A stretch of DNA of 61,762 bases, counting the filler, from Squatina squatina (taxonomy: Eukaryota), in assembly GCA_031763465.1 (NCBI GenBank). It is 4 parts of 4 records of this genome, joined end to end, with 100 filler letters (N's around TTAATTAATTAA, not from the genome) between each part and the next. Parts side by side here need not be neighbours in the genome. Positions count along the whole stretch, not along the records: positions 15,454 to 30,349 come from JARFOE010664962.1; 3 more parts are not named here. The stretch is one strand, 5' to 3'. Position 1 is the first letter of the stretch, and every line of letters begins with the position of its first letter. Below the pieces are notes generated by a model. It was not told where the DNA came from and made no database searches. It was given only the letters and a program-made list of their open reading frames with translations. A program made the position numbers and the translations under genes. Of this stretch, positions 4,540-46,202 are shown in pieces.

Positions 4540-4639
4540 NNNNNNNNNNNNNNNNNNNNNNNNNNNNNNNNNNNNNNNNNNNNNNNNNNNNNNNNNNNNN
4601 NNNNNNNNNNNNNNNNNNNNNNNNNNNNNNNNNNNNNNN

Positions 4640-9995: not shown

Positions 9996-10330
9996 TTATA
10001 TCATAGTTAATTGGGTGAGATCTAGGTCAATCGAGAGAACATCTTTGAATTCTAATAAGACAAATTAATGACCAAAAGGTCATTCGAAAGTTAACCTCAC
10101 CTAATGTGTGTGTAAATATGCATTTAAGTGGAAGTTAGATAAACACATGAGCGAGAAAGGAAGAGAAGGTTATCCTAATAGGATTAGATGAAGAGGAGTG
10201 CGAGGACGCTTGTATGGCGCATGAACACCAGCATGGACTAGTTGGGCTGTACTTTCTATGTCATTCTATGCATTCTATGTCTGGGTAAAAATACAAGACT
10301 GATTTTGTTTGCTTTTCTTTTCTCTTAAAG

Positions 10331-10574
10331 ACCAAGTTTACAGCTGACTGCAATTTCAAGGAGAGGTATCAAGAGAACAGCTACAACACTTATGCCTCGG
10401 CCACTTACAAAAGCGAGAACAATAGCCGAGAGTGGTACGTGGCTTTAAATAAATGCGGTAAAGTTAAAAAAGGGAACAGCCCTCGGGTGAAACCTCAGCA
10501 CATTTCGACACATTTCCTTCCAAGGTTCAAACAGTCTGAAAAAGAAAAGACCTTCAAAATTACGAGAAAAATTC
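10331..10574 (+). CDS. FGF5: Fibroblast growth factor 5, last coding exon (truncated by N-gap)
   Basis: Polypyrimidine tract and AG (ttttctcttaaag), then [91 protein letters not shown] is characteristic of FGF5. Confidence 0.93.
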
Positions 10575-15453: not shown

Positions 15454-15645
15454 CAGCACGGGTTAGATACAGAGTAAAGCTCCCTCTACACTGTCCCATC
15501 AAACACTCCCAGGACAGGTACAGCACGGGTCAGATACAGAGTAAAGCTCCCTCTACACAGTCCATCAAACACTCCCAGGGCAGGTACAGCACGGGTTAGA
15601 TCGAGTAAAGCTCCCTCTACACAGTCCCATCAAACACTCCCAGCT
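15454..15645 (+). repeat. ~67-bp tandem repeat, about 3 copies
   Basis: Unit CAGCACGGGTTAGATACAGAGTAAAGCTCCCTCTACACTGTCCCATCAAACACTCCCAGGACAGGTA starts at 15454, 15521 and 15587. Confidence 0.9.
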
Positions 15646-16084
15646 CAGTTACTTTTGAACACATGTTCTTTCGATTTGAAACCAAATTGCTGCAGTTAAT
15701 TTTGATACAAAAACAGAAAACAAACATGAAGGTCAGAACATGATCCGGGGTCCTAATTGTGGGAGTCTGCAGGCTGTTTATTTATCTGAAAGGAACATAT
15801 TTAGCTGAACTAAATATTTTGTAGAGCTCGGTGACTGAATACATTTTTCCTTAATTGTGAAGTCAGTGACTGGACTGGTTTAGATTCTGAACAAAACTGC
15901 TTCATATTTCTGATGTGTTATCGAGCTTTGCTGTTCAAATGAACTGTTAGTTCTCAGTTCAGCACCCGAGGAAGTTCAGTGCCAATTCCATGTCATCCTT
16001 TATCATCCAACTGGGTTAGATTTCAAAGGTTCCTGTTGTTGTTTTAACCAAGGCTGATTGTCATGCATTGGAAGTGGTTGTGAA

Positions 16085-16465
16085 AGGAAGAACTTTCCTT
16101 TTTATATACAGCACCTTTCATGACCTCAGGATGTTCCTGAGCACTTCACTGCCAATGAAGTACTTTTGAAGTGTTTGTAACACAGGGAACATGACAGGCA
16201 GTTTGTGCACAGCAGGATCCCACAAACAATAGCATGATAATGACCAGACAATCTGTTTAGTGCTGTTCCGGGATAAATATTGGCCTGGACATCGGGGAGT
16301 TAGTTTAACGTCTCATCCAAAAGACACCACTTCCAACAGTGCAGCAACCCCTCAGTATTGCACTGGAGTGTCAGCCTACATTTTGTGCTCAAGTCTCTGG
16401 AGTGGGACTTGAACCCACAACCATGTGGCTCCGAGGCGAGAGTGCGACTCTGAGTCACAGCTGAA
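16085..16465 (-). mobile_element. tRNA-derived SINE (SacSINE1/DeuSINE-like)
   Basis: Reverse complement of the 55010-55410 family, with a B-box-like GGGTTCAAGTCCC. Confidence 0.75.
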
Positions 16466-16710
16466 TAGGCGGCTATTGTCTGTATAAACCATCGCCCAAA
16501 GTGAACATTACCCCGCTCATCTCTCCCAAAGAAAGTAACACCAGGCTACTTAATCTTTCCTTCTCACTTAACGTGCCAATACTGGGAACCATCCTGGATC
16601 CGTAGCGCTGTGAGCTCTCATGGCCCAGAGTGTCCTTTGCCATGACTGGGTGATCCAGAATTGCACACAGACCTTCACATGAGGTTTGACCAACCACCCA
16701 CGATACAATG

Positions 16711-16895
16711 GGGGGTGAAATTGGTCTCGGGCCGTAACATGAAACGGGCGATGGTAAATCACCCGCCCGTTATACACCTGCCCAGATTTTAATTCCATTG
16801 ACTACAATAGAAAAGAAAATCGGGCGGAGTGTGGAACGGGCTGTCGATCCACCATTGATCGTTTCGCACAACCATCCAAGACCAATTTCACCCCC
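16711..16895. mobile_element. Palindromic MITE with perfect 17-bp terminal inverted repeats
   Basis: GGGGGTGAAATTGGTCT at 16711 and AGACCAATTTCACCCCC ending 16895, with a central TTCCATTGACTACAATAGAA palindrome. Confidence 0.8.
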
Positions 16896-17264
16896 AGTGT
16901 GTTCTTTTTAAACCGAGTTCTCTGCTGATCCAGCCAAGCTCCTGTTGAGCATTCTTACAGGAGCACTTCAGCAGAGTGCTGAGAGTTTCATGGATTGTTT
17001 CAGTTGTTCCCAGATGCATTTCCCGATCACCACGCCACAACATCGTACGATGCATTGCCCCACACTTACCGCCCAAAAGACCATTGACTGTAAATGCTGA
17101 CTGATATTATCGTGCCACCCGCAATGGAAACACTCAGCAGTTCAGGCAGCACCTGTGGAGAGAGAAGCAGAGTTAACATTTCAGATCGATGACCTTTCAT
17201 CAGAACTCTTTTATTTGGATTTCCAGGATCCACAGCATTTTAATTTTGTTTTACAGTTGTTGAA

Positions 17265-17640
17265 GAAGACTTGAATTTTTACAGTCCTGTTTACAGCTGC
17301 AGGACGTCCCAAAGGGCCACACAGCCAAAGGAATACATTTGAAGTGTAGTCACTGTTGTAATATAGGGAAACGCAGCAACCAATCTGCGCACAGCAAGCT
17401 CCCACAAACAGCAATGAGATAAAGACCAGATCATCTGTTTCAGAGCTGATGGATGAGGGCTAAATGTTGGCCAGGACACTGGTGAGAACTCACCTGGTCT
17501 TTGAAATAGTTCCGTGGAATCTCTTACATCCCATCTCAGAGGGTGGGTGGGTAGATCCTCGGTTTACCATCTCACCCGAAAGACGGCACCTCGGACAGTG
17601 CAGCGCTCCGTCAGCACTGCACTGGAGTGTCAGCACATTA
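17265..17640 (-). mobile_element. tRNA-derived SINE (SacSINE1/DeuSINE-like)
   Basis: Contains GGGAAACGCAGCAACCAATCTGCGCACAGCAAGCTCCCACAAACAGCAATG, the family core. Confidence 0.75.
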
Positions 17641-20306
17641 ACACTTTCCGGGCTCACCAGTCCTCCTGAATCCAGCTCTATTTTTCTTCATTCGCACTGC
17701 CTCCGCTTCTTGTAAAAGAGGCAAATTTGAGGGAGTTTCTCAGGAAAACCTTTCTCACTTTCGGAGACAGTATCTGAGTAATTTCCAGCATGACATGTGG
17801 TCAGTAGCATGCTTGGGAGGAGCCGGTGACTTTAGACTTGTGGGTCTAAAAGCTCTCCACCGTTTGGAGTTTTCCTCGCCTCATGTCTGCGTCTATTGTA
17901 GACTCATCGCTCGAGATTGATCGCTGTGATGAGTCCACAGCTCTATTATCATACCAGGATGGTAGAAGGGTCTAGATTAGGGTGACCGTGCACATTTGTT
18001 TTACATTTGTGGTGTATATGTGCAACTGTTTAAAACAAACTTTTTGCCTCCATTTTCCATTCTGGCTACTTTGCTGTGCTCCCACCCTGTTTATCCCCCA
18101 AATTCAATTTACGAAAGATGGTCACCCTAACTGAGCTGGACCTTAGGAATTGCAGGACCAAGACAGCCCATGTTCCTAAGCCGCAAGGTTCCTAGAACTG
18201 ACAATTGGATATCTCTTTCATAAGCCATTTCAAACCTGAGAAGCCATCTGTGAATACTGTGCATTTCTAGATTGTCTATCCAGCACTGCATCTTATGGTT
18301 TCTGTTCTTTGACACTTTACCTTTGACTTGCATGGCTTTTCATCAGAAGCTGTAGTGCCAGCGGCCAGAATTTTCATGCCTTTGCAGTTCTTGGCTGTCG
18401 ACCGGTCCTCATGGGCAATTTTAACCTACCCTGCAGTTGGCAAACTGAATGGATCGGGTACAATACTGGTTTCACACCCAGCCCGATTTGACTCTGTCGT
18501 CGATGGAGAGTAATATTGGGCAAGGTGTAAAACTGGCATTCCACCCAATCTCACGGCTTTACCGCCCGGCGAGTTAGGTTCAAGTGACCCAATGCTGACC
18601 TCTTGCAGTGGTTTCCATTTCTCACCAGTCCATTGTAATATTTCCCGGGTGAATTAACATGAAAGTCTCATTAACTATTCCCCACCCGCCGCCCCCCGCC
18701 CCCAGTTTCCACTGAGCATCTCCCAACTGTTTGGATTTTGCTGGTCGTTGAACTGATTTGCAGTCGCTTCTACAATCTTGCCGCACAGAAGGATGTCAGT
18801 CCATTCTCTCTCATTCTAGTGAACAGCTCTATTCTGATCACCACATATAAAGAAGTCCTCATCTTCAGCCTGAACTATTCAACCTTGTCACCTTATTAAA
18901 GTTTAAATGCAGAAGAGCCAGTGAACACAGTGGCTGTTGAACAGAAAACCGAGTGATGCAGCACTCCTGCACAACCTGTTGCTCTCTCTCTGTTACTCTC
19001 TCCCCATCTCTATCCTGCACAACCTCCACACACATGCACTAACTTGCTCCTTGGGTTTTCAGCTGTTTTTTATCACCTGTGATGATGAACATCCTGTCAA
19101 TTTACATAAATCTCTGTACAGTCCCATCCTTGCCCTATTTCTAAGAGTTCAGTCATTAATGGCCTTTCTACTTTTACTGTCCTTGACCTCAACTCGCTGG
19201 CCCTCCATCACCTCGGCTTACATTAACCTTCTAATGTTTTATGCCAGTGTGGCCGGCATTTATTGCTCATCCCTGGTTGCCCTGGGGATGTGACTGGAGT
19301 GACATGTAGGCCCAGACCGGGGAGGGTGGCAGGTTCCCTTCCCTGAAGAACTTTAATGAATCAGGTGCGTTTTTACCACAATCTGGCAGCTTCCCCTGGT
19401 CATTTTATCTGGTGCCAGACCAGAAATCACCAGAATGAATGGTCTCAATTTCCCAACTTGCCATGGCGTGGTTTGTACTCACAAACTCTCACACAATGTA
19501 TTTCCATGGGTCCTATTTGTTATCTTACCCATGTGACCATTCTCTGCAGGTTCTGCCTGTCAATTATGTAGAATCTAAAGTACTTTAATCTCCCAATCCA
19601 TGTCACCTCTTTAAAAAGAGGACAAGACTGCTGCCAATGAATCAGAAGCGGTCTGCGCATGCGCACTGACGGTTCGTCACGGGAGCGGGTTCGTTTAAAA
19701 AAATGTTAAAGGTGGGAAAATTAAAAAGAAAAGAAAAGCCGTGAAGGGAGCAGCCTGGTGAAGAAGTCGGAGCACTCCTCAGATCCTCTGTCTGTTGTGG
19801 TGAACATTATTTTAAAAATTTGGGACCTGACAGTTATGCGCAGAATGCTTCTGTGCAGCTTCTAGTAGCTTCCGGTTCGTCGGTAGGAGTCACTCCATTT
19901 TGAGAAAAGTCTCAGTTATTCCAATAACTTGGTGCCGAATCCTGCCATTTCTGTAAACTCCTATCATTCGGTGCAAACATTAATTGGTTTTGGGATGACA
20001 GACAGGGCCTCGGTTTAATGTCTCATCTGAAAGGTGGCACCTCAGACAGTGGAGCACTCCCTCAGTAGTGCACTGGAGTGACGGCCCAGATCATGGGCTC
20101 AAGTCTCTGGATGGGCTTGAAACCACGACTTTCTGACTCCGAGGTGAGAGTGCCACCAACTGAGATTAAAACTGTAAACTCTTGCATATCAGTGTAACTG
20201 TTTTTGGAAATGGCTGGTTTTATACAGAACAAAATCTCTCCTGCTGCATCTGCCTGTAATGAACATTTTTACTCGACTTACCCGTGTGCACCTATTTATG
20301 TTTCAG

Positions 20307-20627
20307 ATGTCCAGTCTGCACCATCAGTCTACATCCCCAACCCTTCCTGCGGCAGGAACTCCAACCAAGATGAGGTCACCTTCCTCTGCCTGGTCAAGGA
20401 CTTTCAGCCCGAGAGCATCAGTCAGACATGGTCCAGTAACAGTGCAGACATCACGACTGGAATCAAGAAGTATCCGGCAGTCTTGGGGCAAAATATGAAG
20501 TACACGATGAGCAGTGTGCTCAAAGTCTCTACGTCAGATTGGAAAGCCAATGGGTTCTACTACTGCAAGGCGGGGTACAAGCCAAATGAAATGGTGGAAG
20601 TTCCGACCCCAATATATGAACCTGAAC
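20307..20627 (+). CDS. IgW: Immunoglobulin W heavy chain CH1 exon
   Basis: tttcag|...|gttagt, phase 1-1. C1-set Ig domain [15 protein letters not shown]...[17 protein letters not shown]...KKYPAVLG...YYCKAGYKP has IgW-type CH1 features. Confidence 0.9.
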
Positions 20628-21009
20628 GTTAGTACAAGACCTTATTTGCCATTTAAACTGCACTATCGGGGGATGTAATTGGACACAGAAATTTCACCAG
20701 CCAATGTAGGAGGTTGTTGTGCAATAGAGCCCGAATGAATTCTTGTGCCCATATATTCTATTCCTGGACGCCAGCAGTGCTGATGGTAACAGAATAAAGG
20801 ACAGTGAGAAATCACATGCAAGGGCAGAGACGTAATGTCATTGGAACCACATCTGCTGTCCGTGATACAACGCGTCCGATATTCAGTTCTAAAGTCAATG
20901 AAGCTGAGCATCGGGCGGAGTGTGTAACGGGCGACCGATGTCATACCGCCTGCATTGGGCCCGTGCCCATGTCCAATTTTAGACCCACCCCCAATCAGGC
21001 TGTGGTTCA

Positions 21010-21750
21010 TCGAATCATACAGGACAGGAGGCCATTTGGCCCATCACGCCTGTATCAGCGGTAGCAGAGGTATCAAATTAGTCCCACTCACCCTGCTCTT
21101 TCCCCAAAGCCCAGGACATTTCCCCTGTTCAAATACTTATTCAATTCTCTTTTGAAAATTACGATTGAATCTGCTTCCACCACCCTCTTTCAGGCAGTGC
21201 ATTACAGATCTTAAATGGTCGCAGTCATTTTTTGGGGGTTAAATTCCTCCCCCTCCCCCACCCTCGGCTTCTTTTTGCCAATTATATTAAATCTGTGTCC
21301 TCTGGCTACCAATCCACCTGCCAGTGGAAACAGTTCCCCACCCCCCATCCACTAAATCCCTCCCAATTTTGAACCCCTCCATGAAATCCTCCCTTCGCCT
21401 TCTCTGCTCTACTTATAACTGAAGTTCTCCATCCCTGGAATCATTCCAATAAATCTCCACTGCACCCTCTGCAAGGCCTTGAATTCCTTTGTAAAGGTGT
21501 GGTGCCCAGAATTGGACACAATATACTAGTTGAGGCCTTACCAGTGATTTATAATGGTTTTGCAATACCTTCCTTGCTTTTGTGCTCTATGCCTCTATTT
21601 CGAAAGCCCAGGGTCCCGTATGCCTTTTATTAAACAGCCTCATCAACTTGTCCTGTCACCTTCAAAGATTTGTGTATATAAACCCACAGGTCGCTTCCGT
21701 CCCTGCACCCCCTTTAATATTGCACCATTTAATTTATTTTGCCTCTTTCG
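21010..21750 (-). mobile_element. CR1 LINE 3' end
   Basis: Starts with the reverse of a CR1 tail (GAATCATACAGG...GGCCATTTGGCCCATC) followed by RT C-terminal sequence (CCAGAATTGGACACAATA). Confidence 0.7.
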
Positions 21751-22388
21751 TTCTTCCATGACTGAAGTCAATGGAAAAGAAAATTGGGTGGAGCACAAAG
21801 CGGGCTGCCAATTCGCTGTTGTGCGTTTTGCGCTCCCACCCGAGACCAGTTTCTATGACATTTTACTTCAAATGGGCTTGTTCTTCCATTGCAATATGGA
21901 GAGAGGAATGTTGTAGGTACGGGCTAAACCTGCCTCCACTATTATGGACAATTGTAATTTCCACATGAAGTCCCCCAAAGGCTCAGCAAAAACTTTACAA
22001 AGTGCGACCCTGTAAGCACCGATCTCCGACCCATCTGTGGGCAATGTGGGATGTTCAGGTGCCAACAGAAAAATGCTGAACATATACAGCAAGTTGGTCA
22101 GCATCTGAAGTGTGAACAGGTAGACTTGTTTGTCCGAACTCAGAGCTGAAGAGTAACCAAACATTTCAGGAGTGGGCAAGAGAGAACCCAGTAGATTTTC
22201 AGACTGCTTGATATGAAAGGTCAACTGAGTGATACACAGCTGGCAGTTGTACTGTCGATACTGATATCTGTACAGAGGAACACAGGAACAGGTGTAGGCT
22301 ATTCAACCCCTCCAGCCTATTCTGCTACTCAATTAGATCATGGCGAGTCTCAACCCCATTTAATCTGCAATATTGCAATGTGTTACAG

Positions 22389-22697
22389 CTCAACCTCCAA
22401 AGCTTATCTCCCTTGTTCCATCCCCGGAGGCTGTCTACAATCAAACCGAAGTGGTACTGGGCTGTGCGATATCTGGATTCCATCCCAACGAACTTCAAGC
22501 TTCCTGGGAGAAAGCCGGAGTGGAACAAACAGATGCTGTTCTCCTCCCTTCCATGCAGAAAACTGATGCAACTTTTGAAACGGTGACTTACCTGATGGTG
22601 CCTGTGGAGGAATGGACCAAAGGAGACGTCTACACTTGCAAAGTGTTCCATGAATCTTCCAGCTTCAGTGACAGGATCAGCATGAGGTATCGAAAGG
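22389..22697 (+). CDS. IgW: IgW CH2 exon
   Basis: ttacag|...|gtaagt, phase 1-1, encoding QPPKLISLVPSPEAVYNQTEVVLGCAISGFHP...WTKGDVYTCKVFHESSSFSDRISMRYRK. Confidence 0.92.
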
Positions 22698-23423
22698 GTA
22701 AGTGGTGTCTGAGGGGAAAAAGAATACACTGTCAGTTATTCAGCCTTGTAAATGAATGCGCTGACACTCACCCTTAATTTGTGAATCCTTGTCCCTAATA
22801 TCGACCTTGGTGAGAGGCAAGATGTTTAATATTTTGAGTTGATATTGAACCGACACTTGGAGAGTAATTTTAAACCAACGCGCTGGGTGGGGAAACTGCC
22901 GGGATCGGGTTGGCCACCTGTTTATACCCTCGCCCAATATTAGTCTCCGCTAACTTCAATGGAAAGGAAAATGGGGCGGAGTGTGAAATGGGCGGCCCAT
23001 CTGATACCATCCACAATTCAAATCACCTCCTACCTGTTCTCTTTCTACTGTCTCCCAAATGTTGTTCTATGAAAGGAATCTATCCAGTTTTGCATTTTAA
23101 TAAATCTTCATGATCTGCTGCCACCATCTCCTGAGGGAGCATATTCCATAGATTGAGCTCTCACTGAAATATTGTTTCCCCAGATCAGATTAGAATTCAT
23201 CCCCCACCCCACCAACTTTCCAGCGCAGGTCCTGTCCTCTGGTTCGACTGCTCAGGACCAGGTGAAACAGCTTTTCATGGTCTACATGATCTGGTCCCTT
23301 TTTAGGATCCCAAAAACTCAGGATGGAGCAGAGTTCAGGGGCTGTGTGGAGCTCCCACTTTCCCAGCACGGGAGGGGAGGTGAGAATGCATAAGGCTTAA
23401 ATCTCCAACTCTTCTAGTTCCAG

Positions 23424-23537
23424 GTGGAAACGGTGCTTGCTCTTGTTCTGCGTGTTTGCCGAAGTTCCTCGACTAGACTAACCTGAACGTGACATTCTCA
23501 ATATAGATGTCGCCAACAAAAGTGCAAAATAAAGTGA
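23424..23537 (+). pseudogene. IgW: IgW short-form cysteine-rich secretory tail exon, copy 1 (premature stop and 17-nt deletion)
   Basis: ttccag| then (G)GNGACSCSACLPKFLD* with TAG at 23474-23476, then TNLNVTF and an out-of-frame QYRCRQQKCKIK*. Aligns to the intact copy at 25257. Confidence 0.8.
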
Positions 23538-23933
23538 TTGGTTGTGAATGGAATTGGCCGTTGGATTTTATTGCAAACTGTTTGGCGGGTCCAAATCCAG
23601 CCCACGGTGTCTGGCGGGATGGAGTATTAACAGGGGGAGTTTATACAGCCGAAGCTCAGGTTCCACACCCAACCCACTCCTTGTCTGTACAGTCATTTTT
23701 TTTGTGAACTGTGCTGGGTCACTTTGGATCAGGTCCCGACTTCCCAGCTTAACTGGTGCCTCTCTGGTCTGACTCTGGAGGCAAGAATTAGAAGCCCATC
23801 TCTCGCCCAGGGATGCAGTGGAGTGGGAGGTGGNNNNNNNNNNNNNNNNNNNNNNNNNNNNNNNNNNNNNNNNNNNNNNNNNNNNNNNNNNNNNNNNNNN
23901 NNNNNNNNNNNNNNNNNNNNNNNNNNNNNNNNN

Positions 23934-23996
23934 CCTGTACAGTGTCTCATCCGCCCTCCAAGTTCCACACCAGCCGGGATGTGAAGAATGACCAAG
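23934..23996 (+). CDS. IgW: 3' end of an additional IgW CH4-type exon (remainder in N-gap)
   Basis: CTVSHPPSKFHTSRDVKNDQ|gtaggc, identical to 28465-28527. Confidence 0.85.
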
Positions 23997-24139
23997 GTAG
24001 GCCCCTGGGCCTGATTCCAATGTTGACATCATGTGTCCCCACTGCTGTAAAGCCTGCTGGAGCTCAACAGGTTCAACACTGATGACATAGGTAATGTAGC
24101 GGTTATGTGAGTGGACGAGTAATGCAGAGGCCTGGAGAA

Positions 24140-24607
24140 AGAAAGAAAGAGAACTGCATTTATGTTTCTCCTTTCACAACCTCAGTGCATTCAAAAGCGC
24201 TTTACAGCCAACAAAGTAAGTTTTCATTGAAGTGTAGTCACTGCTGTCACGTAAGGGACGCATCAACCAACCTGCACACAGCAAGGTCCCATAAACAGCA
24301 ATGTAGAAATGAGCAGATAATCTGTCTTCTTGCTGCTGGTGGAGGGATAAATATTGAGCAGGCCACGGAGGAGATCTCCCTGCTCTTCTTCAAAATAGTG
24401 GAGGTGGGATCTCTTTGGTCCACCTGAGAGGGCAGACGGGATCTCGGTTTAACGTCTCATCTGAAAGGTGGCACAGCCGACAGTGCAGCGCTCCCTCAGT
24501 ACTGGGACTGGGAGTGTTGGTCTGGATTATGTGCTCAAGTCTCTGCAGTGAGGCTTGAACGGACAACTTTCTGACAGAGGAGAGGTTGTTGCCAATGAGC
24601 CAAGGCT
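24140..24607 (-). mobile_element. tRNA-derived SINE, duplicated with the IgW block (counterpart at 28675-29095)
   Basis: Family core present at the same position relative to the CH4 exon in both copies. Confidence 0.75.
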
Positions 24608-25256
24608 GAAAGTCATAGTTAATAATCCAGAGAACTGAGTTCAGATCCCACCAAGGCAGTTTGAGAATTTGAATTCAGTTCCTGAAGTAAAAACTGTAAA
24701 TAAAAGGTTGTTAGAAGTGACCGTGAAGGCCGTTTACACCCTTGCCCAATTGTACTCTCCATGGCTTCAATAGAAAGGAAAATGGGGTGGGCGTGAAGCG
24801 GGCGGCACATCTGGTACTTTCCACAGTTCGAATCACGTCCTACAAGTTCCTTTTATACTGCTTCCAAAATGTTGCTTTGTGTAACAAATCTATCCAAATG
24901 TGGTTTTTTGAAGTAAATTTTGAAATTGCATGAATTACCACAATCTGCTTCCACCGTCTCCCGCGGGAGCAAGTTCCATAGATTCACCACTCACTGAAAC
25001 ATTGGCCCACTCCATTAGATTTGAATTGACACCTCGCCCCATTTAAGCACAGGTCCTGTCGTCTGGTTCTACTGTCCAAGACAAGGTGAAACAGCTTTTC
25101 ATGGTCTGCATGATCTGGTCCCTTTCGAATCCTAAAAGCTCAGGATGAAGCAGAGTTCAAGGACCGTGTGGAGCTCCCACTTTCCCAGCACAGGTGGGAG
25201 GCGGTGGGGGAGGTGAGAATGTATAACGCTTAAATCTGCAACTCTTCGAGTTCCAG

Positions 25257-25390
25257 GTGGAAAGGGTCCTGCTTGCTCATGTTCTGGGTGTATTCCAAGG
25301 TTCATCTACCAGACTTACCTTAACGTGACCCTTTCCAACGGTGCTGAACGTCAATATAGATGTCGCCAACAAACATGCGAAATAAAGTGA
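25257..25390 (+). CDS. IgW: IgW short-form cysteine-rich secretory tail exon, copy 2 (intact)
   Basis: ttccag| phase 1, encoding (G)GKGPACSCSGCIPRFIYQTYLNVTLSNGAERQYRCRQQTCEIK*. Resembles the skate IgX/IgW short tail as recalled (GGKCPGCSKCLPKFIYQSNLNVSFSDG...CEIK). AATAAA at 25381. Confidence 0.85.
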
Positions 25391-26839
25391 TTGGTTGTGA
25401 ACGGAATTGTCCGTTGGATTTTATTACAAACTGCTTGGCGGGTCCACATACAGCCCACGGTGTCTGTCGGGATGGAGTATTAACAGGGGGAGGCGATACA
25501 GCCCAAGCTCAGGTTCCACATCCAACCCACTCCTTGTCTGCACAGTCATTGTTTTGTGAACTGTGCTGGGTCACTTTGGATCAGGTCCCGGCTTCCCAGC
25601 TTAACTGTTGCCTCTCTGGTCTGACTCTGGAGGCAAGAATTAGAAGCCCATCTCTCGCCCAGGGATGCAGTGGAGTGGGAGGTGGGGGAGTGGGAAATGT
25701 CCCATTGATTCAGTGAAAGGTGGGGGGGAGTGAGGGAGGCTTCTTTAATGGTGTTGATCCTGGGACATATTGGTGAGAAGGGACACAGGGATCCAACTGG
25801 TGCCCTGGATGACCCCGGAGGTTTTGGATGAAAACTCCAGGAAGCAGGAACAGAAACAGTTCCATTCACTGCCCTCCCGGATATTGACAGCAGTCAGCGA
25901 GAGGAACTCAATGCTCAATGTTCACAAGGAATTCAAGTTAGGGAAGTATTTATAAATTCCTCCCATCAAGAGTAAACGGAATTACATGTTGCTTGCCCAA
26001 AAAGTTCAGCATTTTGCAATAATAAGCGGAATACTCCCGCCCCTGTGAGGTTTGGGAGACCGCCTATCACCAGGGACTGTTCAATGCTGAAACTTGATTA
26101 CTAATGCAAGGCAGGGCTGAACACCTTACAAAAAAACAGAATATTTAACACCAGCACAGTGCAGATTAAACCAAGGTTTACAAGTCATTGACCATATTCA
26201 AACATAGATTAACAAATCATTGACTGCACACTGTGACAAGCCTCAGCGGGACCAATCCCAATCCATCAGTATTATTGAAAGGATGTTGCTCACCATTTTG
26301 TTGAAAATGCCGGGTGGAGAAACAGAAAACATCTTAAATAATTAAAGACACTGTCCTGTCAGACAGAGACTCTGTACCAAACATCAGCTCAAACTACAGC
26401 CGGAGGAGTTGATTCCCGGTCTTCATTAAAGGTTTTAATCCTGACACAGAGATGGTCATCCTTCTCCAAGTGTTAAGTTAACATCAGACAGAGGGTAAAC
26501 GATCGATGTGAATCAAAGCAGATAGCTTCGCTGTGATTTGCACAGTGAATGTGTGTGTGTGAATAGTGCACAGAACACACAGTGAGCTGCGGGATATCTG
26601 AAATGATGATGGTCCTTTGGGAGACGATTGCAAAGGAGGAAATGTGTGGAGAATATCGTTCTCTTCCTAGTCCAATGGCTCAGACATGAAACGTGGGGAA
26701 GTGCATGTTGTGCAGAAATAATCCCAACCTGCAGCAAGTGGGGGACTTGTTACTTCCTCTGATTGAGGGCTTGGTCTTCCGTTGCAAACTAACCTTCTTC
26801 CTTGACATGGTGTCATCGACAACAACTTACGTTACAGAT

Positions 26840-27235
26840 CGTCAATGCGGTAAAATGTAATGTAAAACATCCCAAGGTGCTTCACAGGACCATAAACAGA
26901 CAAAAGTTGACACTGAGTCAGAGGAGGAGATATTAGGACAGGTGACCAAAAGCTTGGTGGAAAAGGTAGCTTTTCAGGTGCATCTTAAAGGAGAGAGAGG
27001 CGGCAGGTCACTGAGGTTTAGGGATGGAGTTCCAGAGATTAGGGCTGAGACGCTGAAGGCACTGCCACCAAAGCTGGGGTGAAGGGACTGGAGGATGTAT
27101 AAGAGGCCAGAGTTGGAGGAATACAGAGTTCTCAGAGGGTTGTAGGACTGCAGAAGGTTACAGAGATGGGGAGTGGCGAGGCCATGGAGATTTGAATACG
27201 AGGATAAGAATTTTAAAATTGAAGCAATCCTCGGC
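26840..27235 (-). mobile_element. L2 LINE 3' fragment
   Basis: GGTGACCAAAAGCTTGG and AGAATTTTAAAATTGA motifs shared with the other L2 pieces. Confidence 0.65.
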
Positions 27236-27819
27236 CCAGTCTGAAAGGAGAGGAGGGGTCCTCATTGATTCAGTGTGCTCAATGTCACCAATCAATCCAC
27301 AGCCCCACACGGGGGCTCTCAGCAAACACACATTCATTCAATTGTTTATTTTGTTAAGCGGTCTGCATCTCTCACTCCATCTCACAAACCAGAGATTGCT
27401 GGATCGTTATTAACATCACTGCATCGAAATGTCGCTGAGCTTCACAACTCCGTTGCAGTCCCCACTACGGATCAGTTGGTGACGGTTCTGGGAAACGGAT
27501 TCAAAGCAGATCCGGCGGATTATGCTCTGATTATGTTTACTCGGTTAAAACTTGCAAGCCAAGACATGTAAGATATATTTTAAACAATCCTGGGATGTTC
27601 TGATGTTCGATTTGCTAAAATTTAGCTCCAGTGTGGCTGGATCCAATATCAGGCCAAGACATTACAGATTAAAAAGGACTCGGCTTTAAACTGTTTAAAG
27701 TCACTCTGTCCTGACCTTCCATCACTTATCATCAATAGAAAAGTCTCTCCTAAAATTCTGAACCCCGCTGGCACCAGACATTGTCCATTCTTCTGAAATG
27801 TTCCCTTTCTCATTCCCAG

Positions 27820-28122
27820 AAATGTCTGTGTTTCTCCGAAATCCTTCTATTGAAGAGATTTGGATGAACAAGACTGCTACTCTGGTGTGTGAAGTGGTCT
27901 GTGCCGAACCGAGCAAGGTCCAAATCTCCTGGGCGGTGAGCGGGAAGGCGAGAAGAGAAGGGGTTGTGACCCAGCCACCGAGCGAGGTACAGAGCCGACA
28001 AATAGTCATCAGCAAACTGGAAACCAGCGTGAAGGAGTGGGCCAGCGGAGCAGAGTACGTGTGCTCTGTCCAAGGTGCTTCCTCGTCCTCGCCAGTGTCA
28101 AAACGGACAAGGAGTCCAAAAG
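27820..28122 (+). CDS. IgW: IgW CH3 exon (homologous to IgNAR C2)
   Basis: ttcccag|...|gtgggc, encoding EMSVFLRNPSIEEIWMNKTATLVCEV...SVKEWASGAEYVCSV...KRTRSPK. Confidence 0.92.
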
Positions 28123-28209
28123 GTGGGCAGAGATCAGAAATTTAACGCCAAGCTTTGATACACTCTTTTCCTCGAGGTTAACACTTTCTTTCTTGCACGT
28201 CTGTTCCAG

Positions 28210-28527
28210 TTGAAACAAAAAGCCCCACGGTCAGACTGCTGCCTCCAGCAGACCAAGAAACCAAGAGTAACAATACGGCCAAACTCGAGTGTGTGATCAC
28301 TGGATTCTACCCGGACCTCATACACGTCTCCTGGGAGAAAGACCGCTCTCCGATCTCCTCCAACACCAGCGCTGCACTCACCGCTCTGGAGCAGGCGGGA
28401 ACATTCAGTGTCAGGCACTTCCTGACTCTGAGTACAGAGGAGTGGAAGAAAGGCTCAGTCTTCACCTGTACAGTGTCTCATCCGCCCTCCAAGTTCCACA
28501 CCAGCCGGGATGTGAAGAATGACCAAG
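28210..28527 (+). CDS. IgW: IgW CH4 exon (homologous to IgNAR C3)
   Basis: Follows an 87-nt intron. ttccag|...|gtaggc, encoding VETKAPTVRLLPP...LECVITGFYPD...TALEQAGTFS...FTCTVSHPPS...KNDQ. Confidence 0.92.
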
Positions 28528-28674
28528 GTAGGCCCCTGGGCTTGATTCCAATGTTGACATCATGTTTCCCCACTGCTGTAAAGTCTGCTAGAGCTAGACA
28601 GGTTCAACACCAACGACATGGGTGTGGTCAAGTCGTGGTCATGTGAGTTGGACAATAATCCAGAGGCCTGGAGA

Positions 28675-29435
28675 AAGAAAGAGACAATTACATTTATGTT
28701 TCTCCTTTCACAATCTCTGGATGTTCTAAAGCGCTTGACAATTACAAAGTAATTTTTTTGTAGTGCAGTAACTGTTGTAATGTAGGGAACATGTCAACCA
28801 ATTTGCACACAGCAATGTGGTGATGACCAGATAGTCTGTTTTAGTGCTGTTGTTTGAGGGGTCAATATTCGGCAGGCCAAGGAGGAGCTCTCCCCTGCTC
28901 TTCTTCAAAATAGTGGCTGTGGAATCTCTTGGTCCACCCGAGGGCAGACGGGGCTTCGGTTTAATATCAGAAAGACCACATGTCCCACCGTGCAGCATTC
29001 TCTCAGTCCCAGTGCTGTGCTCAAGTCTCTGGAGTGGGGCTCCAACATACAACCACTGACAGAGAGGAGAAGGTACTGCCAATGAGCCGAGATTGACACA
29101 GTTAATAACCCAGAGAACTGAGATCAAATCCCACCCAGGCAGGTTGAGGATTTGAATTAAGTTTAAAAAGTAAAAACTGGAAATAAAACATTGGTATCTG
29201 TAAAAGTGACTGTGAAGCTGTTGGAATGTCAGAAAAACCCAACTGGTTCACTGAGGTTACTTTGTGGAAGGATACTTGTCCTTAACCTGTCTGCCCCACA
29301 CGTGACTCCAGTCCCACACCAAAGTGGTTGACTCTAAACCACCCTCTGAAGGGGCCGAGCAAGGCACTCAGTTCTACCTCTGGAGAGCAGCAAGAAGTGC
29401 TGGCCTTGCCAGCGATGCCCACGTCCCATCAGGGA
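28675..29435. mobile_element. Minus-strand SacSINE1-like SINE followed by a plus-strand tRNA-headed bipartite SINE
   Basis: Family cores as elsewhere. The second element ends TGGCCTTGCCAGCGATGCCCACGTCCCAT. Confidence 0.65.
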
Positions 29436-29469
29436 ACCATGAAATAATAATTGTAATATTTCTCCCAGA

Positions 29470-29789
29470 TGAATGTTTGGATACCAGCATCTCGGTCACT
29501 TTAAGCAAGCCTCTCTTCGAAGAGATTTGGAGGAACAGGACGGCGACCATTCTTTGTGAGGTGCTTCACAGTGATTTAGAGGGCTTCAGGGTAACCTGGC
29601 AGGTGGACGGACGTAAGAGAGAAGTTGGGGTGAAGACTGAGGGGCCTGAAAGGAATGGTGATAAAGACACGATCCTCAGTAGACTGACGGTCCCCGCCGC
29701 AGAGTGGGAGAGTGGGGTTGAGTATTTGTGTGTGGTGGAGGACAAGAGTTTGCCAACGCCGGAGAAGAGGTCAATCAAGAAGGCACAAG
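29470..29789 (+). CDS. IgW: IgW CH5 exon (homologous to IgNAR C4)
   Basis: ctcccag|...|gtacgt (start 29469/29470), encoding DECLDTSISVTLSKPLFEEIWRNRTATILCEVLHSDLE...EWESGVEYLCVVEDKSLPTPEKRSIKKAQ. Confidence 0.92.
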
Positions 29790-30349
29790 GTACGTGTGGA
29801 CAGAGCTCGGTGTGTGTCTGATCTAAGCAAATGAAGTGGTTTATTACCATCCAGCAGTGAGCTGTTTAGTACGAGGTGTCTGAGCATGTTAAAGACCAGA
29901 GATGCTCGGACCCTGCCGAGGAATGGGTCAGAAAATAATCCCAAATCACCGCAACAGCCTCGCCCCAAACCATACTGGTTCCCGTGGGATGAGTTCACAG
30001 CGGTGGGATAGACCCAGAGGGATTGGCAGCTTTCACAACATTAGGAAGAGCCTGAGTCAGGACAGCCATTGGGAGGATGAGGGAGCTTGTTTGTCTGAGG
30101 TGTAGGTTGAAGACAAGCAAATCCATTCAGAGGAAAGAGACATGGAGCAGACGGCACAGGATGAGGCAAGTCCATGGGCCTACCTCTTGACCACAGCAAG
30201 CAAGGGTCTGGGAAGTGGATCTCTGGTGTTTCTCACATAGAAACATAGAAAATAGGTGCAGGAGTCGGCCAATAGGCCCTTCGAGCCTGCACCGCCATTC
30301 AATATGATCATGGCTGATCATCCAACTCAGTACCCTGTACCTGCTTTCT

Positions 30350-31639: not shown

Positions 31640-31945
<306 letters not shown>

Positions 31946-32799: not shown

Positions 32800-34934
32800 C
32801 CTCTGACGATGCAGAACCTTCGACAGTGCTGCACCTCTGACAATGCAGCACCTCTGACAACAGAACTTCCGGCAATGCAGCACCTCTGACATTGAAGCAC
32901 CTCCGACAATGCAGCACCTCTGACAGTGCAGCTCCTCTGAGAGTGCAGCACCTCTGACAATGCAGCACCTTCAACAGTGCAGCCCATCCAACAGTGCAGC
33001 CTCTCTGATAATATAGTACCTCTGACAATGCAGAACCTCTGTCGATGCAGTACCTCCGACAATGCACAACATCTGACAATGCAGCACCTCTGACATTGAA
33101 GCACCACCAACACTGACGCACCACTGACAATGCAGCAGCTCCGTCAATGCAGCACTTCTGACGTTGAAGCACCTCCGACAGTGCAGAACCTCTTACAGTG
33201 CAGCAACTCCTCAATGCAGCACCTCCGACAATGCAGTCCCTCTGACAATGCAGCACCAACGACAATACAGCAACTCCGGCAATGCAGCACCTCCTACGAT
33301 GCAGAACCTCTGATAATGCAGCACCTCCGACAATGCAGCACATCCGATAATGCATCACCTCTGACAATGCAGCTCATCTGACAATGCAGCACCTCCGACA
33401 ATGCTGCACCTCTGACAGTGCAGCACCTCTGACAAAGCAGCACCTCCGACAATGCAGCACCTCCGACAATGCAGCACCTCCGATAATGCAGCACCACCGA
33501 CAGTGCAACACCTCTGACAATGCAGCACCCTGACATTGAAGCACCTCTGACAATGCAGCTTCTCTGACAAAGCAGCACATCTGACAATGCAGCACCTCTG
33601 ACAATGCAACACTTCCGATAATGCAGCACCACTGACAATGCTGCACCTCCGGCAATGCAGTGCCTCTGACAGTGCAGCACCTCCCATAATGCAGAATCTC
33701 TGACGATGCAGAACCTTCGACAGTTCAGCACCTCTGACAGTGCAGCCCCTCTGACAGTGCAGCGCCTCCTCAATGCAGCACCTCCTCAATGCAGCATATC
33801 TGACACTGCAGCACCTCTGAGTGTGCAGCACCTCCGGCAATGCAGCATCTCTGACAGTGCAGCACCTGCAACATTGAAGCACCTCTGACAGTGCACCCCC
33901 TCTGACAGTGCAGCACCTCTGACAATGCAGCACCTCCAACAATGCAGCACCTCCGGCAATGCAGCATCTCTGACAGTGCAGCACCTGCAACATTGAAGCA
34001 CCTCTGACAGTGCAGTCCATCTGACAGTGCAGCGCCTCCTCAATGCAGCACCTCTGACAATGCAGCACCTCCGGCAATGCAGCACCTCTGACAGTGCAGC
34101 CCCTCTGACAGTGCAGCGCCTCCTCAATGCAGCACCTCTGACAATGCAGCACTTCTGAGTGTGCAGCCGCTCTGACAGTGCAGCCCCTCTGACAGTGCAG
34201 CACCTCCTCAATGCAGCCCCTTTGACAATGCAGCACCAACAACAGTGCAGCACCTCCAACGATGCAGCACATCCTACTGTGCAGAACCTCCTCAATGCAG
34301 CACCTCTGACAATGCACCACCAATGACAATGCACCACCTCCGGCAATGCAGAACCTCTGAGAATGCAGCACCTCCTACAACAGAACATCCGACAATGCAG
34401 CACCTCTGACAATGCAGCACCTCTGACAGTGCAGCACCTCCTACAACAGAACTTCCGACAATGCAGCACCTCTGACAATGCAGCACCTCCGACAATGCAG
34501 CACCTCTGACAGTGCAGCACCTGCAACATTGAAGCACCTCTGACAGTGCAGCCCATCTGACAGTGCAGTCGCTCCTCAATGCAGCAACTCTGACAATGCA
34601 GCACCCCTGACAGTGCAGCCCTTCCTCAATGCAGCAACTCTGACAATGCAGCACCTCTGACAATGCAGCACCTCCGATAATGCAGCACCTCTGACAATGG
34701 AGCACCTCCGACAATGCAGCACCTCCTACGATGCAGAACCTCTGACAATGCAGCACTTCTGACAGTGCAGCACCTCTGACAATGCAACACCTCTAACAAA
34801 GCAGCACCTCCGACAAAGCAGCACCTCCGATAATGCAGCACATCCTACATTACAGAACCTCTGACGATGCAGAACCTTCGACAGTGCTGCACCTCTGACA
34901 ATGCAGCACCTCTGACAACAGAACTTCCGGCAAT
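32800..34934 (+). repeat. 17-bp minisatellite (consensus CTCTGACAATGCAGCAC), roughly 125 units
   Basis: Repetition is directly visible. It produces the spurious VRGAALSEVLHCQRCC ORFs. Confidence 0.95.
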
Positions 34935-35034: not shown

Positions 35035-35274
35035 TGCGCATGCCGTCGCTGCCAGGATATGTCGCAGGAGCTGACTGGACCCTTTAGCCCTTCCGCCATC
35101 TTCACACTGAGGAGGACGGAGTCACCTCCCGCTGGTGAACTGCGGACCACGGAGGTGGCCAAAATGAGGAGCGTGATGCCTACCGATGAGCAGTTTGCTG
35201 CCCTCATCCTGGCGGGCTTTGCCAGCTTATCCATTTTCATCGCCTTTGTATTACAGTATTTCATCATGAAGTAA
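35035..35274 (+). CDS. FNDC3B: Fibronectin type III domain-containing 3B, terminal exon (C-terminal TM anchor)
   Basis: CACRRCQDMSQELTGPFSPSAIF...KMRSVMPTDEQFAALILAGFASLSIFIAFVLQYFIMK* matches the human FNDC3B C-terminus (MPTDEQFAAIIVLGFATLSILFAFILQYFLMK). Confidence 0.93.
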   Translation, partial: CACRRCQDMSQELTGPFSPSAIFTLRRTESPPAGELRTTEVAKMRSVMPTDEQFAALILAGFASLSIFIAFVLQYFIMK

Positions 35275-38200
35275 CGGAGGGAGAAGAAAGCAAGCAAAAC
35301 GATACGCATATAATTCTTGAGGTATAAACTTAGCCACATACTAGTGCCAGCAAAACTCATTTAAATATTCCTTTGTTGAACTTCTATTAATCGTCTTTTA
35401 TTATTAATTTTGTTATTAATATTTTTTCCTCTTCCTTTTTTTTTGTTCNNNNNNNNNNCTCTTTCCTGCACCTTTTTCGGAAATTACTTTGACCCTTTCA
35501 CCACATGCCGTTTGGCACCACCCCCAGGACTAGTCAAGCCGCTGCTACCCTCCCGTGAAGTTGGGTTCTCGGCTGTGCGAGGAGGCTGTGAACGAGTTCA
35601 AGTATTCTCCCAGCCAACTGTTTAGTTGGAGGTTTTAGCATTTTTTTATATATATATATATACAAAAATATATATTTTAAAAAAAAATATTTACGCTGGG
35701 AAGGAGGTTGGGGTGGGGGTGCGGGGGATGCGGGCGGGGAGAGACAACAAGCTTCAAATTGTTCGAAAGCGTCGATCGACTAGAAGAATGCCGGGTTTTT
35801 TTTTAACATTTAGACAGCGTACTTGCAGGAAACGCCATGGGTGGCATATTTCATTTAGCTGTGGGAAGGGGAGCATTCCCTGTGATCAGCTCTGATGCAG
35901 TTCCACCCCTTGGACTATGGGCATGATGTTGGCAGTCAAATTCTACCCGGCAATTCGGGTGCCATATTATTGTAATTATGCCAAGACGGGCCCCTCTGCC
36001 CAGCTTTCGTTCACTGCCCTTATGCGTACGTCATAAGTGAGAGCTACGGCATACCGCCATAGGTGTATTTGTAAGATTGTACGAGCCGCAATCGGGTCCG
36101 GGGGAGCGGTGTTGAAGGCGGCCCCTGATTTGCGCTCTGCCCCTTATTTCTTTTTAACCGTACCAATCCTCTCGGGCACCGGACACCCCTCTTGAGACGC
36201 TTGAACTCCTTTCTGCCACCCGGGGACGGCCGTGTGGTGGTGGGANNNNNNNNNNNNNNNNNNNNNNNNNNNNNNNNNNNNNNNNNNNNNNNNNNNNNNN
36301 NNNNNNNNNNNNNNNNNNNNNNNNNNNNNNNNNNNNNNNNNNNNNATGTACGGGACAAGACACGGTCCTCCGACAAGTGTCGTGAAACAAAGGGGAAATG
36401 ATAGACGCGAACACGAACCAATGGTCAGAGGAAACCGCCCCGCTCCCCACCCTGCCTTCCCTCGGACACATGTTAAAACAAGTTTTGAGTTGAAAACCAA
36501 ATAGAAAATGATAAAGTCGAGCCGAGAGTTTCTGAGCCGAGCCTGAGTCGTCGCGCTTGGTGCAATCCATCTCACTCTCCGCACCTCCCTTACCCCTCGC
36601 CAAACTCAGACGGGGGCGCAATTCCAGCATTTCATTCATCATTTCTTATTTATACTTGTTATTGCATTCAGTACTTTAAAAAGAAAACCAATTTCAGTGC
36701 AATCCTATTATTTATTGTAAGTATGCTTATGTACTCATTTTAGTTTTCTCTGGGTAGCATGCTTTGTGTTTTTTTTGTCTGTGTGTCCATTTTGAATTTT
36801 AGAAGTTTTTTTGCTGTCGGTGTCTCTTAAGTTCTAGTTTTTGTAACGCTTTTTATCTCAAATCGAGAATTCTTTTATCTCGTGTGCGTGCGTGCGTGTG
36901 CACACGAGCGTGTACGTACTGTTCACCAAAAGCATTATTTGCGAATGAAATGTTTACACATAGCCAGGCTAATAACCATAATTGTTTTTTTTTTGTGGGG
37001 GCGGGGATGATTTATCCCCTACAAACTGCTAAGATCGTTGTTGTATTAAAGTACCCGGAATATCCAGGGGGCTCAACCACGGAGAAGTCGGGGGGAGGGG
37101 TGTATGAACCCCAATTTTCTTGACATGAGTTGCGACCCTTTCCCGTGACCTGAATTCCCCCCCCTCCCCTGAATCTTTCTAGGTGGTTGCGTCCCTCAGG
37201 TTATCAGTTGATGTAGCAATGTTAGTCAGGATTTCTAGTTAATTCTTGCTGTTTTTTTTCATTACTTCCGATCGCTGAATTTGACAAAGCAANNNNNNNN
37301 NNNNNNNNNNNNNNNNNNNNNNNNNNNNNNNNNNNNNNNNNNNNNNNNNNNNNNNNNNNNNNNNNNNNNNNNNNNNNNNNNNNNNNNNNNNNAAAGCAAT
37401 CAGAGCAGATAGTTACATTTGAGCAATTATTGTTTTTGAATTAAAGATTATCTTCTATTGCCAAAGCTTCAGGCTTCTCTACTTTAACCATTTTTTTTTA
37501 ATTTAAATTGTTATGTGTTTTGTGACACTTGCTTTTAATAGTTTTTTTTCTTTGAGGTCCCTCATATACATGTCATTCATAGTTTTTAAATGAACATAGT
37601 TTGTCTTTTTTAAAAAGATTTAGAAGACAAGAAGGCAAAACAAATTTTTTTTTGAAGTCGGGTACTGTTGAGTCTGCGCTATTCGATGCAAGTTATGGAA
37701 ATGTTTGCTTCCTGCAGGCACTGCAAACCAACGCTACAAATCTGCCTCGGTGTCGATTCTTGCCATACTCAAATCGATTTGACACTTGAAGTTACGCTCT
37801 GGCATGCCAACCACACGATAAATTAACGCACGCGTCTGAAATTCCTCTGGCCACTAAACCGGTTAACACCTCCCGCTAAAATGGCGGAGAGAGAACTTTC
37901 CGACAGATGTTTGTTCTAGGACTGCTATCGGGGCCTCGTNNNNNNNNNNNNNNNNNNNNNNNNNNNNNNNNNNNNNNNNNNNNNNNNNNNNNNNNNCATT
38001 AAAGCCTTCATCCCTTGGTATCACACAGCGTAATTACAAGGTCTGAATTCTTCAGACTCCCCCTCTCTCTCTCTCCTCTCTTCATTATCGAGCAGTGTTG
38101 CTGTTGTGAGACTATTTCCCCTGCAGCGATGCACCTCTTGGTTAAGTAATCTAAGTTCTGAAAGAAATTAAATGACTCTCTTTTACCTCAAGTGTTGAAC

Positions 38201-39061: not shown

Positions 39062-39361
39062 CTAACTGACCAGGAACGCACCAAAGAAACTGGATCCTCC
39101 AGCCATATCAATCAAGCTGATGTTGCTGACAGTCACAAATATTCTGTCGAGGTATTTGAGTTCAAACACCCCGCCCTGGTAAATGGAATGCAACCCGAAT
39201 TCCGCGTTCTTAGCCCAGCATGTTGTCCTGGTGTTCTTCATTAAAAGAATGGGGTCGGGGTAGGCGGTGGACTTGTAGATATACTGGATCATCTGTTTGT
39301 TTCTGGAAACCGACAGCGGGCCGCCTGAACTGGAGTCTCCCTCACCTGCGGCTTCGCGATG
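39062..39361 (-). CDS. TNFSF10: TNF superfamily member 10 (TRAIL), 3' part of last exon
   Basis: KQMIQYIYKSTAYPDPILLMKNTRTTCWAKNAEFGLHSIYQGGVFELKYLDRIFVTVSNISLIDMAGGSSFFGAFLVS*. Lies convergent to FNDC3B as in human. Confidence 0.92.
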   Translation of the reverse strand, partial: HREAAGEGDSSSGGPLSVSRNKQMIQYIYKSTAYPDPILLMKNTRTTCWAKNAEFGLHSIYQGGVFELKYLDRIFVTVSNISLIDMAGGSSFFGAFLVS

Positions 39362-40960: not shown

Positions 40961-41036
40961 GAACAGTAAAATATGGCAGCTGACTATAAAATAGAATGGT
41001 AGATCACTTCACTTAATTGGCTGCTTTTCTTTGCAG

Positions 41037-41284
41037 GTCATGCTATATGCAGCGCTTCTGGAGATCCTCACTATAATACTTTTGATACACGTGTTCACCA
41101 TTTCATGGGAACATGCAAATATATGCTGTCCAAACCATGCAGTGAATCTTCAGTGCTCCCTTACTTTGATGTGTCAACTATGAATGAGCACAGAGGTGTC
41201 AACACTAAAGTGTCTTGGGTGAACTCTGTGCATGTGTTTGTCCATAACAACACGATTTTAATCATGAAAAGTCATAAAGTGCTG
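41037..41284 (+). CDS. Zonadhesin/FCGBP-like protein, VWD domain exon (N-half)
   Basis: ttgcag|...|gtatgt, encoding [34 protein letters not shown]...[20 protein letters not shown]...KVL. Confidence 0.9.
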
Positions 41285-42092
41285 GTATGTGAGTTTGTTT
41301 TGTATTATTTGTGATTATTCATAGACTGATGCAAGACTTGCCTTAGATCTTTACTTGTTCACTGATGCATTATAACGATGTACTACTACAAACTACATTT
41401 TCATTTCTTGTTGTCAAACTCTGGTGGGGGGTTGCGCGGAGAGGCTGAGGGGAAACAAACTTAAAACATGGACAGCTAGTAGTTGTTTTGTTTCAGGATG
41501 CTTACCGTACTGGTCTTTTCATAGCTTGTGCATAAAACAATGTTGACCCTTGTAAAAAGTAAGTAATGATGTATTTGTTTTGGGGGCAACCTTCATTTAG
41601 AGTAAGATACGGTTCACACAAACGATTTGGAAACACCATGCTCACATGAATGATTCATTGGTACAATTTATTGCATATTAATTCCAATCTTGCAGTCTGT
41701 TAAATGGCAATAGTTCAGCACCAGATCTGATAAAGAGCATGGCAGAATAATGACACAAACAGGACATATTGAAAGTCCAGCAAGTTCGGTTCAAATACCT
41801 GCACTGTCAGATTGGATGCCACTGCCAGGCAGGCCTGATATCACTTTCTAACCTGGAGTAATGCATGTTCATAGTTTGTGGAGTCTATACTGTGTACTGG
41901 AAGTATGAAATAGATAAATGCATCATATAATAAATATTTAACAAAACCCAAGAAATTATAATCTACTGCACTCACCTGAGTTTTGAATTATATAGGTTGT
42001 GTGACAGTTGTTGACTCATAGGTGAAATTGTATGGATGAGGCATATCAGTTTGTAATTTATGTAAACAGCAAGCATATTGTTCTTTCCATAG

Positions 42093-45682: not shown

Positions 45683-46202
45683 TTTGCTGCTGCTTTTATT
45701 GAAAAAGGATAGGATTGGGCTTCGTTGAGATAGGATACCCTCTGTGGTCAGATAGCCTATAACATTTACTTTCAAGGCTCAACATTAATCATGACCACTT
45801 GGGGGAGATACTGACGGGCAACTTGATACCACGGAACCATATCCCAGCCAGCAATCAATGAATTATTGGCTTCCGGAGAGATGCCAAAGAGGACAGAATT
45901 GGTGAGAAAGAAAATGCAGAAAACTATGATGTAAGGAACTGTCCATCCACCAGTGCAAAAGTAGAAGTACATCAGGACACGCATTGCTACCACAGGGACC
46001 TAATACTGTTTAGCATAAGAACTTACGACAAAGAACTTGAAAATAATAAAGTTGAGCTCGACTTTGATCTGGCATAAAATTTTCCTGAACATCTGTGTAT
46101 CTGAAATTGTTTAGTTTGTCTTCCTGCTTGGTTCAGACTATGTAGAACAAATAATTTGATCCACTCAAGGATCATTAAAACTGTTTATATTTGCCTTTGC
46201 AG

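Follow-up and report, generated by a model that had tools for sequence, protein, structure and literature searches.

The IgW heavy-chain locus analysed here carries two Cys-rich secretory exons, one broken in the assembly (S1, behind CH2) and one intact (S2, behind a CH4-type exon). This raises the question whether a tandem duplication moved the functional secretory tail from CH2 to CH4, as the first-pass annotation had proposed, or whether a cluster with two tails lost one of them by decay. The window is the whole stretch of 61,762 nucleotides from Squatina squatina (assembly GCA_031763465.1) and consists of short scaffolds; N44-linker-N44 marks separate them at 15354, 30350 and 47810, and 100-N gaps are frequent. 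The region of S1 and S2 belongs to the scaffold 15454-30349, which has a single 100-N gap at 23834-23933. Other 100-N gaps of the window join fragments from different genes, a point that weakens the link across this one. The left contig holds CH1, CH2 and S1; the right-hand contig is gap-free and holds the CH4 end, S2 and CH5-CH7. With S1 and S2 on separate contigs on either side of this gap, their placement in the same cluster is based on the scaffold join and on an assembly-graph argument given below.

Elsewhere in the window, an FGF-family exon fragment (Pfam FGF) lies at 10289-10573 (+) and presumably resembles FGF5. A 17-kb scaffold carries pieces at 31640-31945 (-), 35037-35360 (-), 39065-39361 (-), 41003-41311 (+) and 46160-46471 (+), comprising a kinase (weak Pfam match), a short ORF with no Pfam match that we take to be MMGT1-like, a TNF-family domain, and VWD and TIL domains; the 100-N gaps between them are probably large. 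A degenerate tandem repeat of 2.1 kb at 32800-34934, whose self-match offsets often differ by ~17 bp, yields spurious Cys-rich ORFs. Short tandem arrays were seen at 15454-15652 (unit ~67 bp) and 52435-52661 (unit ~84 bp). The ORF fragments at 4299-4813 (-) and 51349-51684 (+) resemble a LINE endonuclease and a Harbinger-type transposase.

The IgW scaffold holds the following features:

20307..20627, plus strand: IgW CH1 exon, open, phase 1; 79% identical to Squalus acanthias IgW, 78% to Pristiophorus
22389..22697, plus strand: IgW CH2 exon, open; 71% to S. acanthias IgW
22920..23833, plus strand: duplication unit 1, 5' part (intron, S1, 3' flank); 81% to 24732-25685
23424..23537, plus strand: S1, broken Cys-rich secretory exon, with intact acceptor, TAG, deletion and an out-of-frame remnant up to the old TGA (23535-23537)
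23528..23533, plus strand: AATAAA of S1, intact, with GT-rich sequence after it; putative poly(A) signal
23834..23933, no strand: 100-N scaffold gap; a block of ~2.8 kb that includes CH3 and the greater part of CH4 is probably hidden here by collapse onto 25609-28541
23934..23996, plus strand: CH4-type exon, 3' end, followed by a GT donor; same sequence as the CH6 end
24717..24740, no strand: approximate position at which the tandem duplication joins a CH4-type intron to one of CH2 type, within the gap-free contig
25257..25390, plus strand: S2, intact Cys-rich secretory exon (homology, open frame, signals)
27820..28122, plus strand: CH5 (C3-type) exon, open; 72% to S. acanthias IgW
28210..28527, plus strand: CH6 (C4-type) exon, open; 90% to S. 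acanthias IgW C4
29469..29789, plus strand: CH7 exon, penultimate C domain type by homology, open

All five C exons tested matched the Ig C1-set family. The six visible C exons or parts (five full, one partial) are open, in phase 1 and bordered by AG/GT signals, and the C1-set exons stand in IgW order with an IgW-type CH1, as in an IgW heavy-chain cluster. The visible part of the CH4 exon is its last 63 nt, and CH3 is absent from the sequence. The closest sequence is Squalus acanthias AES92979.1 (CH1 79%, CH2 71%, C3-type 72%, C4-type 90%), a 4-C membrane form and as such uninformative on S exons or the 8-C layout; a tree of 25 C3-C4 units placed the window beside Squalus with support of only 86/83. 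V, D, J, CH8 and TM lie beyond the scaffold: neither a V nor a J match was found in the 4.8 kb before CH1 (scaffold begins at 15454), and the 560 nt after CH7 (scaffold end 30349) gave no orthologous match to CH8/TM. Intron read-through after CH2 (22697-22777), CH4 (23996-24082) and CH6 (28527-28646) would give ends of 26, 28 and 39 residues, with AATAAA motifs at 23099, 24699 and 29182, respectively.

S2 starts at 25257 behind an acceptor (ttccag followed by GT), is in phase 1 and stays open until the TGA at 25388-25390, with an AATAAA at 25381-25386. Translation from 25259 gives a peptide of 43 aa (P0001; 44 aa including the split Gly) with 5 Cys and one NVT sequon, which confirms the first-pass description of an intact exon. 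The tail is identical to the Pristiophorus (sawshark) IgW-short tail at 28 of 43 positions (65%), to horn shark secreted IgW at 60-63% and to nurse shark secreted IgW at 20 of 42 (48%). When 1.84 billion representatives were searched with S2, three matches at E<=0.001 were obtained; two are elasmobranch IgW secreted tails and the third is an unrelated repeat protein (1.6e-4). Judged by these alignments, the likeness of S2 to IgW tails is not due to chance. S2 thus combines homology, an open frame, its own stop and poly(A) signal and a preceding C4-type exon, as in an IgW Cys-rich secretory exon, and the first-pass assignment of both exons to this class holds. A Pfam search of the tail gave no match, and a word-index search with the tail alone as query returned no candidate. 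The predicted model of S2 has strands at residues 18-24, 30-36 and 39-42 at low confidence (pLDDT 62, 4 sequences), and a fold search with it was uninformative, as none of 48161 chains reached Z>=5 and the best score was 3.2. A third tail copy is absent from the window, and there is none behind CH6.

Each AATAAA (23528-23533 and 25381-25386) shares sequence with the final codons of its tail, x-Ile-Lys. Ile-Lys is kept in 6/6 intact tails, perhaps because these codons double as poly(A) signal, the relatives being compared as protein. The intron before each acceptor (23411-23423, 25235-25256) still aligns to the longer N-terminal part of the horn shark tail.

S1 has kept its acceptor (16/20 pyrimidines vs. 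14/20 in S2) and is interrupted by a TAG at 23474-23476, where S2 has CAG, and by a net 17-nt deletion just before 23499. Both lesions had been annotated before (CAG>TAG, 23474; 17-nt deletion; 3 Cys) and were recovered by alignment, read from the assembly only. The frame is not open through the C-terminal cysteines, and the predicted product has 17 aa and 3 Cys, in support of the truncated tail first proposed. Among the alternative acceptors screened none restores the 3' frame, and a second in-frame AG 6 nt upstream (exon start 23418) runs into the same TAG. The 36 aligned codons of S1 and S2 show 4 synonymous and 10 non-synonymous differences, with the stop counted among the latter. The first 15 aa of S1 are 80% identical to the sawshark tail, and in our reading of the alignment Gly>Ala, Tyr>Asp, Gln>stop and the deletion are derived in S1 relative to sawshark. 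Past the deletion, 11 of the 13 codons of the remnant are the same as in S2, and this close match suggests that the decay is recent.

If the stop and the deletion were assembly errors, S1 would be intact. The lesions are known from the assembly sequence alone. A sequencing-run search with 23934-29830 pointed to two DNA runs of one study (shares 0.06 and 0.05) and to no RNA run among the matches listed. Runs X1 and X2 were compared over 20200-23833, with observations from 16 of 2551 pieces, and no contig among these 16 supplied S1 letters at 23474. The sole listed piece reaching into S1, X1 record 8 (23331-23451, 11 gaps), fits an 11-nt indel of the S2 flank and is therefore probably S2-type and uninformative at 23474. 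Nevertheless, the lesions are of two kinds, a substitution and a deletion, and lie ~20 nt apart; moreover, the assembly resembles short-read k=77 output, and deletions of this kind are uncommon in such assemblies. Errors at this site are thus regarded as very unlikely.

The duplication itself is visible in the sequence. Besides the match of unit 1 listed above, 23934-24728 repeats at 28465-29217 (76%), and the introns of the duplicated copies are 74-87% identical. Identity between the copies changes from the far intron towards the gap: 77% in the intron, 86% in the S exon, 91-94% downstream and 100% in the overlap. At the left edge of the gap the final 77 nt are identical to 25609-25685, and at the right edge the first 77 nt are identical to 28465-28541; in both cases a mismatch ends the overlap. 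Because exact 77-nt overlaps stand on both edges of the gap, the gap probably hides a collapsed CH3-CH4 block, and the cluster would be of the 8-C type. The overlaps would then be k=77 graph overlaps on a collapsed repeat, with the CH3-CH4 of the gap nearly identical to CH5-CH6; the hidden content would be 2779 bp if it is the same as copy 2. On the pattern of identities, the [S exon-C3-C4] unit is an old duplication with a homogenised core. In eight other elasmobranch proteins C3C4 and C5C6 of one gene are 64% to 97% identical, and gene conversion of duplicated exon pairs has been reported for shark UrIg2 in the available excerpts of PMC12227049. An S exon after CH2, an S exon after the CH4 end and a second C3-C4 pair correspond to the nurse-shark layout, with CH3 and most of CH4 assigned to the gap; full tails from both internal S exons, which that layout would also entail, are not found here, S1 being broken in the assembly.

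The same collapsed repeat could have produced a chimeric scaffold, with CH1-CH2-S1 from one cluster or allele (e.g. a 6-C one with a dead tail) and CH4-S2 from another that has its own intact S1, joined through near-identical C3-C4. Indeed, the join is the N100 gap at that repeat, IgW is a multi-cluster system in which C3C4 of different nurse shark clusters are 90-94% identical, and several CH1 versions occur in runs X1 and X2; in X1 at least two distinct CH1-like contigs cover a single stretch, an indication that the organism has several IgW clusters. However, A-R-X-R-Y is the most economical order that accounts for every piece observed, and the right-hand contig (B) itself combines the CH4 end, S2 and CH5-CH7 without a gap, so that we consider a chimera unlikely. 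Slightly less probable again is a cluster that is decaying as a whole, a pseudogene with S1 as its first visible lesion. Several changes do fall within ~50 nt of S1, including the loss of a Tyr that 6/6 intact tails carry, and V-D-J was not seen on the scaffold, which begins 4.8 kb before CH1. Against this, the five complete C exons and S2 are open and keep the conserved Cys/Trp residues and splice sites.

Known shark IgW provides a frame for these observations. According to the excerpts available from PMC5192425, PMC4279169, PMC6795676 and bioRxiv 2022.06.22.497154, the IgW clusters of nurse shark contain between six and eight C exons, splicing yields secreted IgW with 2, 4, 6 or 8 C domains, and the 2-C secreted form carries a long Cys-rich tail. 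IgW multimers and protein have been detected in sharks, as stated in parts of PMC8692893, PMC13007054 and PMC10707392. A profile search gave 65 proteins among 8000 scored candidates. Five of 78 collected proteins have a tail (three after CH2, two after CH4), and 29 of the 78, many of them gene models and not cDNAs, have two or more C4-type domains, as does none of the seven squalomorph records retrieved. Some IgW gene models are mislabelled 'titin-like' or 'immunoglobulin mu-like' (P0009-P0017, P0002, P0018, P0022, P0025), and the sawfish and Mobula IgW models have 6-7 or more C4-type domains.

The nurse shark (Ginglymostoma cirratum) chains AGY29600.1 and AGY29602.1 (P0034 and P0041) consist of V, four C domains and a Cys-rich tail. 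As in the window, the tail follows C4 in a gene with duplicated C3-C4, and like S2 it has 5 Cys and a sequon. P0041 is nearly identical to the 8-C chain P0072 (C1C2 202/203, C3C4 206/208) and P0034 to the 6-C chain P0071 (C1C2 204/204, C3C4 205/208); the same cluster also gives an 8-C (AGY29605.1) or a 6-C (AGY29601.1) chain. Here, in contrast, the CH2-proximal tail is broken, the tails are only 44-48% identical to those of nurse shark, and the arrangement is known from genomic sequence alone. We presume that the four AGY accessions stem from Zhang, Du Pasquier and Hsu 2013; nurse shark IgW is reportedly described in Zhang 2013 with 'two interspersed secretory exons'. Two further nurse shark chains of secreted type have little or no tail, namely AAT02199.1 (2C, ending two residues past CH2; P0077) and P0046 (4C, 7-residue end). 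They look like products of intron read-through, unlike the nonsense-truncated exon S1.

In horn shark (P83742/P83743) and in the sawshark 'IgW short secretory form-like' protein (P0005), CH2 is followed by the same Cys-rich tail, 60-65% identical to S2 and intact, unlike S1; in horn shark the tail has 6-7 Cys and additional residues at its beginning. The horn shark 2-C chain with tail, P0008, differs from the 8-C gene model P0018 at 2/87 residues of CH2, which indicates that the CH2 tail normally survives the duplication and that both tails coexist. The six intact tails have 5, 5, 6, 7, 5 and 5 Cys, and an odd number, which the first-pass annotation had named for the truncated tail together with a possible change in polymerisation, is therefore nothing special (5/6).

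On the first-pass reading, a shift of the working tail from CH2 to CH4 by duplication would be a regulatory or structural innovation, and CH2-S2 exon skipping would serve as a rescue. In its favour, S2 still encodes a full tail and S1 no longer does; compared with sawshark, S2 shows in our reading about five derived residues and the insertion of a Pro, a 1-codon insertion relative to S1 as well. In addition, the 2-C transmembrane forms mentioned in reviews show that the CH2 donor can reach distant acceptors. The duplication is nevertheless old by its intron identities, while the decay of S1 looks recent, and in other sharks the 4-C form already exists and the CH2 tail persists next to the duplicated unit. 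Skipping from CH2 to S2 would have to pass an intact S1 acceptor, a poly(A) signal, two C exons and ~5.2 kb. A move of the tail was thus rejected on the 2/87 difference in horn shark CH2 and on the existing nurse shark 4-C form, and we hold it to be highly improbable. The related claim of a secreted short IgW with four C domains stands insofar as S2 can give such a chain; the form is not new, since P0034 and P0041 already consist of V, 4C and tail.

We favour, with a probability of about 0.75, a single IgW cluster of a squalomorph, probably dogfish-like shark, in the order CH1-CH2-S1-[CH3-CH4]-S2-CH5-CH6-CH7-(CH8, TM), which arose by tandem duplication of [S exon-C3-C4], whose chain lengths are set by RNA processing, and in which S1 decayed later. 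The duplication would have created the cluster with two S exons. From each C-exon donor, splicing would then lead to the following C exon or, alternatively, to an S exon with its own stop and poly(A) signal. Splicing of CH4 to S2 would give a normal V+4C+Cys-tail chain as in nurse shark, and read-through to CH8 an 8-C chain. S1 would once have served as a functional second tail, lost by fairly recent decay within this cluster or allele. Given the horn shark 8-C gene with its intact CH2 tail, the duplication would have provided two tails, S1 decayed afterwards, and nothing moved.

Since the acceptor and AATAAA of S1 are kept, this exon may still yield a 2-C chain that ends in a 17-residue stub. 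A stop in a terminal exon usually escapes nonsense-mediated decay. The most likely residual product, with chances about even as judged from the exon sequence, is a 2-C chain whose 17-aa CxCxxC stub would be without the predicted beta-hairpin, the sequon and the last two cysteines; all strands of the S2 model would be lost in it. The animal probably still obtains normal IgW-short from its other IgW clusters.

A literature search that covered a minority of the primary IgW papers, and is weak to that extent, turned up no account of a broken IgW secretory exon. The lesion of S1 is the sole particular feature of the locus, as architecture and 4-C product are already known, and the finding therefore mainly extends the layout and the 4-C secreted form to another shark group. 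It also shows that exons of this kind are missed by automatic annotation. Most likely, S1 is an optional exon of one cluster among several and has decayed recently; in one of several redundant clusters, a broken exon of this kind is otherwise as neutral decay predicts. In the less conventional case, which we think improbable, the loss of S1 would be fixed in the shark lineage, perhaps across IgW clusters, with a full tail only on the 4-C chain and a 17-residue three-cysteine stub on the 2-C chain, and this would possibly be the first squalomorph 8-C IgW cluster with two S exons. Reviews leave open what the IgW Cys-rich tail does. A fixed loss would represent a natural split of the tail into a CxCxxC part and a hairpin part and could show which of them drives IgW multimer formation; if the stub form is expressed, it would be a natural truncation mutant for tail function.
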